Shown in pieces: positions 11,671 through 50,769 of a stretch of 64,000 nt of DNA (its first letter is position 1; every line of letters starts with the position of its first letter). The stretch covers positions 120 to 64,119 of the forward strand of contig JBGTLL010000181.1 in assembly GCA_041744115.1 (NCBI GenBank), given 5' to 3'. The stretch is from Parvularculaceae bacterium. Its GTDB lineage: Bacteria; Pseudomonadota; Alphaproteobacteria; Caulobacterales; Parvularculaceae. The notes beneath the pieces are model-generated. The model ran no database searches and was not told the DNA's origin. It saw only the letters and a list, made by a program, of their open reading frames with translations. A program made the position numbers and the translations under genes.

Positions 11671-11695
11671 TGGCGCCCCAAGGGGCAGAATTGAA
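11671..11695 (-). repeat. Degenerate copy of the tRNA-Phe 3' end (att-like site 3)
   Basis: TGGCGCCCCAAGGGGCAGAATTGAA versus TGGTGCCCAGGGGCGGAATTGAA at 50694-50716, same orientation. Confidence 0.75.
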
Positions 11696-12054
11696 ACGCA
11701 AATCTAACCTGCTGATACCAAGCATTGCCTGATGCTCGGATACTGTCGATTTCACGCGCAATTCGAACTCTTTCCGGCGCGACTGATGGAAAGAAGCTGT
11801 GTGCTTCGCATGCGAAGCTTTTACGAATTGCCACATAACCGTCGGAAGCGTAACCGGATTGCGGACTGAATTGCTACCTTTTTCATTTGGTGAATGATCG
11901 CGCCCATGACCAAAAGCGTAGATCGTTGGTCGCGCGCTACGGCAAAGCATCTGATTAACAACGGAAAAAAGAAATCGACCGGGGCCGGAGCGTCAATTTA
12001 TCGGGAACCCATGTGACGAAGGCGGCGAGAAAACATCACTTTGCGCTGTATTTT

Positions 12055-12068
12055 TGCAAAGATTTGCA
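12055..12068. promoter_or_regulatory. Operator TGCAAAGATTTGCA upstream of the MFS-LacI operon
   Basis: One of five 14-bp TGYAA-N4-TTRCA-like sites in PUL2 intergenic DNA. Confidence 0.6.
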
Positions 12069-12104
12069 TAATCCTTCACCGCGCCGCGATTTGAGGATTT
12101 GCCA

Positions 12105-13658
12105 GTGCCAAAACCCGACCTGAGTTTCTGGCGCATCTGGAACATGTGTTTTGGATTTTTCGGAATCCAGATCGGTTTCGGCTTGCAGAACGCCAATGTC
12201 AGCCGAATATTCCAGACACTGGGCGCGGAAGTCGATAGCCTGCCAATTCTGTGGATCGCAGCGCCGCTGACCGGGCTGATCGTCCAACCCATCATCGGCC
12301 ATATGAGCGACAAGACTTGGGGCCGTCTCGGACGCCGCCGGCCCTACTTCTTTTTCGGCGCGCTCGCGACTACAGCCGCGCTTTTCGTGATGCCAAATTC
12401 TCCCGGTCTTTGGATCGCCGCCGGGATGCTGTGGATCATGGACGCCTCAATCAATGTGACCATGGAGCCCTTTCGCGCCCTCGTCGGCGACATGCTGCCA
12501 CATCGTCAGCGTACGCAAGGTTTTGCGACGCAGAGCTTCTTTATCGGCGCCGGCGCGGTGCTCGCTTCAGCAATGCCCTGGATGCTGTCGAACTGGCTGT
12601 CGATTGATAACACCGCGGCGCCGGGTGTTATTCCGGATTCTGTCAAATACGCCTTTTATGTCGGCGCATTCTTCGTACTCGTGTCAGTCATGTGGACGGT
12701 GTTCTCGACAACGGAATACCCGCCAGACCGATTGCGCGCTTTCGCACAATCGGAATCTGCCGAAAAAACTATCCAGCCTGAACTAGAGCCGCTGTCGCCA
12801 AACGCCGGCAGCTACTTTCGCAATGGCGGCGCCTGGCTTATTGCCGGCGGTGCTGCGACCTTTGCGATTGCGCAATTCGCCCTGCAAAAGGAATTGTTCG
12901 TCCTCAGCGTCGGCGGCGCCGTTTTCGGATTGATGCAGATTGCGGCCGGTATGCTGCGTCAGCAAGGCCGGGCGAATAATGCATTCTCTGAAATCCTCGA
13001 TGATCTTTTTTTGATGCCGCGAACCATGAAGCAATTGGCTGTTGTGCAGTTTTTCTCGTGGTTTTCCCTTTTTTCGATGTGGATCTACACAACGGCGGCG
13101 GTAACCGAGCGGCATTTCGGTACGACGGATGCGACGTCAGCTGCCTTCAATGAGGGCGCAGATTGGGTTGGCGTTCTATTCGCGATCTACAACGGCGTCG
13201 CTGCGATTGCTGCATTCGCCATACCGATTCTTGCGGCAAAGACCGATCGCGGCATCGCTCATGCGATTTGTTTATTGTTCGGCGCCGCGGGCTTTGCATC
13301 GTTCTTTTTTATCAGTAATCCCGGAATGCTTTGGATCGCCATGATCGGCGTCGGAATCGCTTGGGCGTCGATTTTGTCCGTGCCATATGCGATTCTCTCA
13401 GGTTCGCTGCCGGCGCACAAAATGGGGGTCTATATGGGCATCTTCAATTTCTTTATCGTCATTCCGCAATTGACAGCCGCGAGCATTCTCGGCGTTCTCG
13501 TGCGCGGCTTGTTTGATGGACAGGCGATCTATGCGCTGCTTTTAGGCGGCGCGAGCCTTGTTGTTGCCGCCGCGGCGACGCTTTTTGTGGATGACTTGCT
13601 TTCAGCGAGGGGTGGGAAGGGGCGGCAGCTGAAGCTGCTGCGTAGAATTGATGGATAG
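12105..13658 (+). CDS. MFS maltose/alpha-glucoside transporter (MalT/SLC45-like)
   Basis: MCFGFFGIQIGFGLQN and GRRRPY motifs; GTG start with GAGGA RBS (ORF-track start 12099). Confidence 0.9.
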   Translation: MPKPDLSFWRIWNMCFGFFGIQIGFGLQNANVSRIFQTLGAEVDSLPILWIAAPLTGLIVQPIIGHMSDKTWGRLGRRRPYFFFGALATTAALFVMPNSPGLWIAAGMLWIMDASINVTMEPFRALVGDMLPHRQRTQGFATQSFFIGAGAVLASAMPWMLSNWLSIDNTAAPGVIPDSVKYAFYVGAFFVLVSVMWTVFSTTEYPPDRLRAFAQSESAEKTIQPELEPLSPNAGSYFRNGGAWLIAGGAATFAIAQFALQKELFVLSVGGAVFGLMQIAAGMLRQQGRANNAFSEILDDLFLMPRTMKQLAVVQFFSWFSLFSMWIYTTAAVTERHFGTTDATSAAFNEGADWVGVLFAIYNGVAAIAAFAIPILAAKTDRGIAHAICLLFGAAGFASFFFISNPGMLWIAMIGVGIAWASILSVPYAILSGSLPAHKMGVYMGIFNFFIVIPQLTAASILGVLVRGLFDGQAIYALLLGGASLVVAAAATLFVDDLLSARGGKGRQLKLLRRIDG

Positions 13659-49282: not shown

Positions 49283-50380
49283 GTGACAGCCAGCACGTCA
49301 TTTTTCCAGCGCTTCCTGCTGCCCGGTCTCGTCTTCAAGGCGGTCGTCATCGGCGGCGGCTACGCCACCGGGCGCGAACTCGTCGAGTTTTTCTTGCCGG
49401 CGGGCCCCGCGGGCGGCGTATTGGGAATGTTGCTCGCGATGGCGATCTGGAGCGCGGTGTGCGCCGTCGGCTTCGCGTTCGCGCATTCGCTTTCGGTCCA
49501 CGACTACCGCGGTTTTTTCAGGTCGCTCCTCGGGCCGTTCTGGCGGCTGTTCGAGGTTGCGTATCTGTTGTTCCTTGTGCTGATACTCGCCGTCGTCTCG
49601 GCGGCGGCGGGCGCGATCGGCGCCGCCCTCTTCGGCTGGCCGGTCGTCGCCGGCACGCTGATCCTGATGGCCGCGGTCGCCGGTGTTGCAAGCTTTGGCA
49701 ATGCCGGCGTCGAACGCGTGTTTCCCTACACGTCGGCGCTCATCTATATCGTATATGCGTTGTTTCTGGCGCTGGCGCTGACCAACTTCGGCGACCGCAT
49801 TCCCTCAAGGCTTGCGCTCGACGTTCCGATCGGCGGCTGGGCGACCGGCGGCGTCGTCTACGCCAGTTACAATGTTGTCGCGATGATCGCGGTTCTGCCT
49901 TTTGTGCGCCATCTGACCAGCCGCCGCGACGCCTTGATCGCGGGCGCGCTATCGGGGCCTTTGGCCATGCTCCCGGCGCTGATGTTCTTTCTGTGCATGA
50001 TCGCCTTCTATCCCGAGATCGGCGCCGAGACGCTGCCATCCGATTTTCTGCTCCAGCGCATGAACGCGCCGTGGTTTCACATGCTGTTCCAGCTGATGAT
50101 CTTCATGGCGCTGCTCGAAACCGCGGTCGGAGTAATCAACGCGTTCAACGAAAGGATCGGGACGACGCTCAAGGCGCGGAACGTGCGCCTTTACTCCTTT
50201 CGCGCGCGCTTCCTGGTGGTTGCGGCGCTGCTCGTCGGATCGGGCTTTGTTGCGGCGCGCTTTGGCCTGGTGACCCTCATCGCCAAGGGTTACGGGGCGT
50301 TCGGATACGTCATGCTCGCAATCCTCGTGGCGCCGCTTTTAACGATCGGTACCTGGAAGCTCCTGAGAACCCGGCAGTAA
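49283..50380 (+). CDS. YkvI-family membrane protein (putative amino-acid permease)
   Basis: VVIGGGYATGRELVEFF; multi-TM. GTG start inferred. Confidence 0.82.
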   Translation: MTASTSFFQRFLLPGLVFKAVVIGGGYATGRELVEFFLPAGPAGGVLGMLLAMAIWSAVCAVGFAFAHSLSVHDYRGFFRSLLGPFWRLFEVAYLLFLVLILAVVSAAAGAIGAALFGWPVVAGTLILMAAVAGVASFGNAGVERVFPYTSALIYIVYALFLALALTNFGDRIPSRLALDVPIGGWATGGVVYASYNVVAMIAVLPFVRHLTSRRDALIAGALSGPLAMLPALMFFLCMIAFYPEIGAETLPSDFLLQRMNAPWFHMLFQLMIFMALLETAVGVINAFNERIGTTLKARNVRLYSFRARFLVVAALLVGSGFVAARFGLVTLIAKGYGAFGYVMLAILVAPLLTIGTWKLLRTRQ

Positions 50381-50399
50381 GCGCTAATTCAAGTGCAAG

Positions 50400-50560
50400 C
50401 GAAGGGCCCCGTCAGACTCCGAACGAAAGCATCTTCTTCACCAGATTCGCCAGTTTGCGACCCTCAACGCCGCGAACCATCCGCCGGCGCATATCAATCG
50501 AAACCGAATGTCCCATGGGTCACCTCCAAAGAGGGTGAATCAAGTTTCGCCGTCACCGCA
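50400..50560 (-). pseudogene. IS630-like N-terminal stub
   Basis: GGAGG RBS, then MGHSVSIDMRRRMVRGVEG, resembling IS630 OrfA N-termini, ending after about 34 codons. Confidence 0.45.
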
Positions 50561-50693
50561 AACAAAATTGATTCGGGTTATCCGCCCGACGCTCTGGTCG
50601 CGAACAAGAAGAGACGACCAGAGCCCTAAGACACTGAAGTTACGAATAAAAAAGCACGGAGGCGGATGATGGGGTCTAGTCGGAAACAGGTGG

Positions 50694-50769
50694 TGGTGCC
50701 CAGGGGCGGAATTGAACCACCGACACGCGGATTTTCAGTCCGCTGCTCTACCAACTGAGCTACCTGGGC
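50694..50769 (-). tRNA. tRNA-Phe(GAA)
   Basis: 76 nt GCCCAGGTAGCTCAGTTGGTAGAGCAGCGGACTGAAAATCCGCGTGTCGGTGGTTCAATTCCGCCCCTGGGCACCA; folds as a cloverleaf with encoded CCA. Confidence 0.99.

Follow-up and report, generated by a model that had tools for sequence, protein, structure and literature searches.

Probable Fossil Array of Genomic Islands Downstream of tRNA-Phe in an Uncultured Hot-Spring Parvularculaceae Bacterium

Introduction

The pheU and pheV islands of E. coli are integrated at phe-tRNA genes. A phe-tRNA gene is also a known island target in Mesorhizobium, where the passage of PMC5812530 that cites Sullivan and Ronson (1998) places ICEMlSymR7A. Integration, decay, and accretion of a newcomer behind the decayed copy have been described as a scenario for integrative elements, and the integrase-less remnants stacked in this way by site-specific accretion are known as cis-mobilizable elements (CIMEs) (PMC5704250). 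Here, we analyzed a stretch of 64,000 nucleotides (the window) from a Parvularculaceae bacterium (assembly GCA_041744115.1, contig JBGTLL010000181.1, positions 120 to 64,119). Downstream of its tRNA-Phe gene, 39 kb hold a D-amino-acid/peptide cluster (block A), a small decayed element (element B), and a maltodextrin cluster (block C), with short copies of the tRNA 3' end beginning at positions 33328, 30717, and 11671. We consider it probable, on balance, that these 39 kb are a fossil tandem array left by successive site-specific integrations into the tRNA 3' end. This tandem-island reading is supported for block A and element B and plausible for block C.

The window resembles the ICESt1/ICESt3-related CIME arrays of Streptococcus thermophilus (PMC5704250) in its head-to-tail stacking at the 3' end of one target gene, with att-derived repeats between the members, and in that older members keep their cargo while integration and transfer genes are lost. 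It differs from them in its degenerate att copies, pseudogene integrase, alphaproteobacterial host, and tRNA-Phe target, and no conjugation or relaxase remnant marks the ancestors here as integrative and conjugative or integrative and mobilizable elements. As in a CIME, blocks A and C carry no integration or transfer genes. Repeats are present, but those at 33328 and 11671 are altered in their first 13–15 nt. Mobilization of the array in cis is unlikely because the att copies are degenerate and the sole integrase is a pseudogene.

Features shared with ICEMlSymR7A and the pheU/pheV islands are a tyrosine recombinase acting at a phe-tRNA 3' end, regeneration of that end, a short repeat at the far side, and cargo for adaptive metabolism. 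Unlike in those islands, the integrase is of a small-element kind that reads toward the core, and the blocks measure 2.6–19 kb rather than hundreds of kilobases. Among the usual signs of tRNA-linked islands, we found the 3'-end location, repeats at the borders of element B, and either a deviating composition (block C) or a patchy distribution (block A).

tRNA-Phe and the Copies of Its 3' End

ARAGORN identified a single tRNA in the window, an intact tRNA-Phe(GAA) on the minus strand (50694–50769), whose 3' end, at 50694, reads TGGTGCCCAGGGGCGGAATTGAACC on the plus strand. Copies of this end were scored by a Smith–Waterman scan with the last 35 nt of tRNA-Phe as the query, and chance levels were taken from Markov shuffles and from natural DNA (1.23 Mb of relatives' loci, both strands). 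The shuffles gave ~0.03 windows scoring at least 16 per 64-kb strand, with a maximum usually of 12–14. The natural DNA contained ~22 non-tRNA matches scoring at least 13, four scoring at least 15, and one scoring at least 16. The three copies listed by the initial annotation were all recovered at its coordinates in one shared orientation (Table 1), with unequal strengths.

The copy at 30717 is clearly more than a chance match. It repeats the last 13 nt of tRNA-Phe exactly, CCA included (scan score 13). A search of 3.5 Mb of DNA from related proteobacteria placed the 13-mer only inside six real tRNA-Phe genes. The copy at 11671 (TGGCGCCCCAAGGGGCAGAATTGAA) is of moderate strength. With a score of 16, it was the top non-self match, where ~0.03 (shuffles) to 0.05 (natural DNA) are expected per 64-kb strand, and taken alone, it is suggestive of a tRNA-Phe end. 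The copy at 33328 (GTGGCGGCGGCCCAAGGGCGGAAT) scored 13, as did an unrelated match inside a GH13 gene at 17021. It was credited despite this score because of its distance from an integrase remnant (~150 bp), its strand and side, which are those of the related locus L202 described below, and the homologous spacer that separates it from the remnant. The initial annotation would have given way had the 11671 and 33328 matches been no better than background; by score, the former lies moderately above background and the latter does not.

All three copies sit at module borders, outside credible genes, as had been claimed. The genes at the ends of both cargo clusters are the same as in the 37 (maltodextrin) and 76 (peptide) homologous loci that we retrieved, in which the clusters recur as units. 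The repeats thus lie just outside two independently defined units. Substitutions and indels occur within the first 13–15 nt of the 33328 and 11671 copies, and the span of similarity to the tRNA varies from ~13 nt at 30717 to ~20 nt at 33328 and ~24 nt at 11671. These differing lengths would fit the use of other integrases by blocks A and C than by element B.

Table 1. Features of the tRNA-Phe locus (window coordinates)
Feature	Coordinates	Strand	Basis
tRNA-Phe(GAA), integration target	50694–50769	−	ARAGORN; synteny in relatives
Block A, D-amino-acid/peptide utilization, 17.3 kb	33352–50693	+	Pfam, NCBIfam; genes 33436–50380
Degenerate tRNA-Phe 3'-end relic plus 4 nt of downstream flank	33328–33351	+	Alignment, geometry, spacer homology
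Tyrosine-integrase C-terminal pseudogene	32892–33186	+	tblastn with homologs P0021–P0026, all PF00589
HipA_2-like kinase gene fragment within element B	32211–32846	+	Pfam PF20613, E = 8.8e-5, under the gathering score
IS630-family transposase pseudogene with several frameshifts, inserted in element B	31029–32215	−	Pfam DDE_3, six-frame reading
Inverted 9-mer pair GTGGGACAC/GTGTCCCAC just inside the left end of element B	30762–30821		Motif count
Perfect 13-bp direct repeat of the tRNA-Phe terminus, distal junction of element B	30717–30729	+	Exact match
Block C, maltodextrin utilization, 19.0 kb	11696–30716	+	Pfam, NCBIfam TonB-Xanth-Caul; genes 12099–30658
Degenerate tRNA-Phe 3'-end-like sequence, possible distal junction of block C	11671–11695	+	Score 16
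hipA pseudogene fragment, roughly residues 64–165, truncated at both ends	11352–11659	+	Homologs P0001–P0013; Pfam Couple_hipA

Element B, a Decayed Integrating Element

Between the 30717 and 33328 copies (30730–33327) lies debris made up of an IS630-family pseudogene, a HipA_2-like fragment, and an integrase C-terminal pseudogene. No other integrase remnant occurs in the window. The pseudogene is frameshifted near 32976, lacks the GH motif, and carries a stop in place of the catalytic Tyr codon. It points toward 33328 and ends ~150 bp before the relic; neither block A nor block C has such a PF00589 pseudogene. Metagenome depth showed a spike at 31204–31470, within the IS630-family pseudogene.

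The ends of the element also carry shared motifs. The inverted 9-mer pair just inside the left end is matched by a pair at 33252–33295, just inside the right end. The 9-mer GTGTCCCAC has three occurrences, all of them at these ends, against 0.24 expected, and the two inner ends align with each other in inverted orientation. The 9-mer pairs are candidate arm-type protein-binding sites. Judging from the integrase remnant, the 13-mer, and the likeness to locus L202, we take 30717–33351 to be a genuine decayed tRNA-Phe-integrating element, in agreement with the initial annotation. The relic at 33328 would most likely be its tRNA-side junction, displaced by the arrival of block A.

Relatives of the integrase supplied the comparison. 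The closest homolog on a long contig (P0023, 60% identity to the remnant) lies in locus L202 at 6001–6336 (+), with a minus-strand tRNA-Phe 86 bp downstream and a perfect 15-bp direct repeat of the tRNA-Phe terminus 1.65 kb to the left (4772–4786). This layout is that of the window, from the 30717 repeat through the integrase remnant to the 33328 relic, and it supports both junctions of element B. The spacers between integrase and core are homologous in the window and L202 (CCCACTTTTCCCAAACGGCGGAAAAA vs. CCCATTTTGCCCTCACAGCGGAAAAA), aligning with a score of 16 against a shuffle mean of 7.9 (sd 1.3), a score reached by none of 500 shuffles. CCCTCAC pairs occur in L202 and in a further locus, L203, at positions matching the 9-mer pairs of element B.

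A second comparison came from loci L203 (5881–6700) and L204 (4214–4760), which belong to two assemblies and share the integrase remnant P0028. They are 99.9% identical through the 15-nt core and then diverge. Past the core, the 3' half of tRNA-Phe follows in L204. In L203, the core is followed by a left arm with homology to the one in L202 and then by unrelated genes, namely a second integrase-family open reading frame (ORF) and the defense-type genes GIY-YIG, HicA-like, HEPN, and DUF499. The divergence at the core indicates that a newcomer arriving behind a remnant leaves the order integrase remnant, spacer, short core relic, and new DNA. The same order is present at 33328 in the window. We regard the L203/L204 pair, from its sequence, as an independent example of accretion within the integrase family of element B. 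Separately, the tRNA-Phe half in L204 breaks off at the anticodon loop, with AT-rich DNA beyond it.

The integrase family was found reduced to its C-terminal 110–130 residues beside an att core in three unrelated contexts (window 32892–33186, L202:5926–6306, and L203:5881–6207), and all 11 of the 11 best database matches were 70–133 amino acids long. One guess is that deletions sparing the adjoining tRNA may leave the integrase C-terminus until last. The closest near-full-length relative (L207:748–1833) contains one in-frame TGA immediately after the conserved YTGQR motif, which splits it into ORFs of 214 and 116 amino acids, and on the contig of P0024, a 192-amino-acid ORF is followed after 72 bp by a 132-amino-acid integrase ORF. 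Prim-Pol and Arc-like genes accompany the closest intact-looking relative. A search of viral contigs for the integrase returned two distant matches only, neither with a tRNA. Together, these observations define a small tRNA-Phe-integrating family with a 13–15-nt terminal core, a core-adjacent integrase, and paired arm motifs, represented mostly by C-terminal stubs.

Block A, a Peptide Cluster of Foreign Distribution

Block A encodes an HTH-cupin regulator, two tandem beta-lactamase-fold hydrolases, a DgcA-like racemase, a POT peptide symporter, an amidohydrolase, an M19 dipeptidase, a TonB-dependent receptor, a DgcN-like protein, a class A beta-lactamase-family protein, a DUF3471 serine hydrolase, and a 400-amino-acid protein without a family match. 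A search with the M19 dipeptidase yielded 76 peptide loci, most of which contained a largely colinear cluster running from the regulator to the serine hydrolases and the 400-amino-acid protein. The hosts were Sphingomonadales, Steroidobacterales, Xanthomonadales, and Caulobacteraceae, with 45–79% amino acid identity, and the nearest relatives of the cluster came from sphingomonads, Steroidobacter, and xanthomonads. Parvularculaceae were absent from these 76 best loci, and none of the 76 lay beside a tRNA-Phe.

A homologous peptide cluster of the gammaproteobacterium Steroidobacter gossypii (L014:10067–20504; regulator 76% and DgcN-like protein 74% identical) lies a few kilobases from queF, the gene that adjoins tRNA-Phe in the window. 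This proximity was judged coincidental, as the cluster lies on the opposite side, next to dnaX-recR, with no tRNA-Phe there.

In content, block A resembles the DgcN/DgcA D-glutamate catabolic genes, as it combines near-cut-off homologs of both with D-aminopeptidase-like hydrolases, an M19 dipeptidase, and a peptide symporter. The block A proteins scored 452 bits against a cut-off of 480 for DgcN (NF041892) and 375 against 400 for DgcA (NF042940). Because both scores fall just under the curated cut-offs, a D-glutamate-type catabolic function is putative.

Several further features of the block were recorded. The protein encoded at 46638–47624 exceeds the NCBIfam generic class A beta-lactamase cut-off (221 vs. 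200 bits) and has homologs within this cluster in a few other genomes. The adjacent hydrolases of 667 and 671 amino acids (34266–38316) are tandem duplicates with 73–78% nucleotide identity in a 2047–2059-bp register; most homologous clusters elsewhere have a single copy. In the 314-bp gap between the cluster and the tRNA, a 33-codon ORF (50417–50516, −) of no recognizable family is preceded by a strong ribosome-binding site, GGAGGTGA.

Block C, a Maltodextrin Cluster, and the Left Border

Pfam and NCBIfam searches identified in block C an MFS transporter, a LacI regulator, three GH13 enzymes, a MalA-type TonB-dependent receptor, two halogenase-like proteins, a DUF6445 protein, a GH97 enzyme, and an SSF symporter. 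This is the content of the carbohydrate utilization (CUT) loci and the MalA system of Xanthomonas and Caulobacter (PMC1790865), which combine a TonB-Xanth-Caul receptor, GH13 and GH97 hydrolases, a LacI regulator, and inner-membrane transporters. Block C likewise has receptor, glycoside hydrolases, regulator, and inner-membrane transporter together. The likeness concerns the cargo and not mobility, and the locus is conserved within Parvularculaceae at other chromosomal sites.

A search with the MalA-type receptor yielded 37 homologous loci. The ten best were 61–73% identical and came from Marinicaulis, Parvularcula, other Parvularculaceae, and unclassified Caulobacterales or Alphaproteobacteria metagenome-assembled genomes (MAGs). 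In most of these ten, the genes from MFS to SSF were mostly or all present in conserved order at ~50–80% identity. The left flanks of these loci all differed, and four shared a right flank. A tRNA-Phe lay beside none of the 37. In one Marinicaulis MAG, the first gene of the locus has a tRNA-Thr (L094:2003–2078) 390 bp upstream.

The base composition of block C sets it apart. The GC content at third codon positions (GC3) was 0.645–0.734 in block C compared to 0.735–0.783 in the left flank, 0.73–0.805 in block A, and 0.725–0.805 in the core genes right of the tRNA. Block C lies ~8 points under all neighboring blocks with sharp borders, the shifts being located within 11304–12099 (~800 bp) and 30658–33436. 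The nearest maltodextrin loci belong to Marinicaulis MAGs with a GC of 0.52–0.55, and the composition agrees with a putative donor of lower GC within the family.

Some debris is present at the left border in the form of the hipA fragment, which has one frameshift near 11480. The 11671 copy begins 12 bp past the last confidently aligned hipA codon (11659). An in-frame BLAST extension raised the possibility that the repeat is mere hipA coding sequence, which was rejected on anchored and semi-global shuffles (P = 0.06–1.0). The hipA fragment and the HipA_2-like fragment of element B (32211–32846) were also considered as parts of one split gene; this was unsupported, as their families differ (Couple_hipA vs. 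PF20613). Gene callers on metagenome contigs placed a 230-amino-acid ORF at 11258–11950 (−), overlapping the repeat and the hipA fragment. This ORF is probably spurious, given that it has no Pfam match, runs antisense to hipA, and covers the repeat.

Left of the border, 4761–11304 is a further sugar locus with a TonB-dependent receptor, LacI, GH13, and MFS genes. The initial annotation expected a fourth block here. Within the window left of 11671, no tRNA-like match scored at least 13 and the composition was native, which speaks against it.

Block C is probably an older island, as its composition is foreign and its far border carries the 11671 repeat and the truncated hipA fragment. This island status is the weakest link of the reconstruction.

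Synteny in Relatives and Metagenomes

Right of tRNA-Phe, the window encodes queF, a cyclophilin (PPIase), a NUDIX protein, and a serine acetyltransferase (SAT). The best relatives of these core genes were Parvularculaceae MAGs, the closest of which were retrieved by a NUDIX-based search; a queF-based search (at least 600 candidates) had missed them. The order tRNA-Phe-queF-PPIase-NUDIX-SAT was kept in three relatives (L085, L086, and L205) at 70–91% amino acid identity. Synteny in all three ended at the tRNA-Phe 3' end, and the DNA beyond was unrelated in each, encoding metal ATPases and an alcohol dehydrogenase or a Rieske/ferric-reductase protein and cytochrome c.

The window sequence occurs in hot-spring metagenomes (four runs) as a single strain. 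Depth was even across every border (~41–48x in run X1), and no contig joints at the repeats were found in the four metagenomes, based on assembled contigs, which drop rare variants. A run from a different study (X5) was considered as a second strain; it contained identical 151-bp pieces at 51000–52051 only (~1 kb) and was uninformative. Since the integrase is dead and the cores are degenerate, the array would now be fixed and immobile, with the contigs allowing for rare excision.

Farther right, just beyond the conserved core genes, a DDE_Tnp_1 transposase ORF lies at 54952–56112. A 5–8-fold depth spike at 54016–54683 indicates repeated or mobile sequence there. Two adjacent GT87-family and two GT2-family glycosyltransferase genes cluster at the right end of the window (57720–62914), and the last gene has a lower GC3, of 0.657.

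Discussion

Repeated integration at one tRNA, as put forward in the initial annotation, is the best explanation of the borders, the debris, and the repeats. Two, and probably three, integrations at tRNA-Phe would have been followed by decay into integrase-less remnants. Each newcomer would regenerate the tRNA end and displace earlier arrivals, along with the leftover copy of the end, outward. Block C would have been the first to arrive, or may already have been nearby. The small element B, with its 13–15-nt tRNA-Phe terminus and an integrase beside the attachment site, would have integrated next, and block A would have come last, parting the tRNA-side junction of element B from the tRNA. Deletion, IS630 insertion, and point mutation would then have destroyed the integrase of element B and stripped blocks A and C of any recombination genes they had. 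The outcome would be two intact nutrient-uptake loci stranded in the chromosome.

The position of the relic speaks to the last arrival. The 33328 relic would once have been joined to a tRNA body, as in L202, and the intact tRNA beside queF now lies 17.3 kb away, so block A would have entered between them and regenerated the end. We infer this order of events, and likewise the entry of blocks A and C by tyrosine-recombinase integration. The direct observations behind them are the repeats, the integrase remnant and the link of its family to tRNA-Phe, the module borders, the composition of block C, the foreign distribution of block A, and the synteny break.

Several points weigh against this reconstruction. 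As already noted in the initial annotation, the cargo blocks contain no integrase: domain and homolog searches found no integrase, excisionase, or transfer gene or remnant in either block A or block C. The GC3 of block A is native. Block C is typical of the family, with an identity to relatives like that of core genes, and could be old chromosomal DNA. The 33328 copy is at background by score alone, and the 11671 copy is only modestly above it. The relatives compared stand at the family level, none closer than ~80% amino acid identity, and offer no true empty-site comparison. The arms beside the cores of blocks A and C were not convincingly alike in ~25 comparisons; the best alignments paired the right end of block A with an arm of element B (133-nt global, P = 0.003) and the left ends of blocks A and C (local, P = 0.049). 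Shared attP-type arms that would place blocks A and C in one element family were therefore not relied on, the similarity being marginal.

These points feed an alternative in which only element B is an integrated element. Blocks A and C would be ordinary chromosomal clusters, block A having been placed by rearrangement, replacement through homologous recombination, or illegitimate insertion, and the 11671 copy would be a chance match. A score like that at 11671 arises by chance in ~3–5% of such windows, and the copy came from a reading that scanned for matches. Block C is colinear and 60–80% identical family-wide, like core genes, and both the mobility-gene remnants and convincing homology of the core-adjacent arms are absent. 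We nevertheless consider this alternative unlikely. It needs 17.3 kb of phyletically foreign DNA to have been set exactly between the tRNA end and the relic with the tRNA left intact, and the GC3 of block C changes at the position of both repeats. Moreover, L203 and L204 show that accretion occurs after integrase remnants of this kind.

Fewer events would be needed if blocks A and B (from the tRNA to 30717) or blocks B and C (from 33328 to 11671) had arrived as one composite island, its internal repeat being carried along or due to chance. Tandem transfer of a whole composite is documented (PMC5704250), the low-GC stretch at ~12–34 kb covers block C plus element B, and the 33328 score alone equals background. 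Set against this, element B has two ends of its own that share arm motifs, and its 13-mer is significant. In addition, the integrase lies directly beside the core in its family (L202), and block A is thus unlikely to have been part of the interior of element B. Such a composite is improbable.

The initial annotation went further and proposed an accretion platform with a cassette-array-like organization, its cargo possibly mobilized in trans. Cis- and trans-mobilization of integrase-less elements are known in other bacteria (PMC5704250), but it is very improbable that the att sites of these cassettes still work and that an integrase from another part of the genome cuts them out and inserts them again. 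Against this, two of the three repeats have degenerated and carry indels within the 13–15-nt core used by this integrase family, and the resident integrase lacks its catalytic Tyr. Depth is even with no joints at the repeats, and none of the 113 homologous clusters elsewhere is at a tRNA-Phe, a count that also tells against the tandem array. It is correspondingly very doubtful that tRNA-Phe is a recurrent docking site in the lineage, with recombinase-stripped, TonB-dependent foraging loci still moved by a distant integrase; were this so, it would amount to cassette-like exchange of whole nutrient-uptake pathways. The array is not integron-like, as it has no intact platform integrase, no attC-type sites, and 17–19-kb multi-operon blocks with their own regulators.

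The tandem array is best read as a stack of islands of an ordinary kind, acquired horizontally and no longer mobile, and involves no new gene-capture system. It leaves the current understanding of genomic islands unchanged. For this uncultured hot-spring member of the Parvularculaceae, it would provide a worked example of whole outer-membrane uptake pathways, for starch-derived sugars and for D-amino-acid peptides, becoming fixed at a tRNA hotspot and stranded there as the recombination machinery decays.

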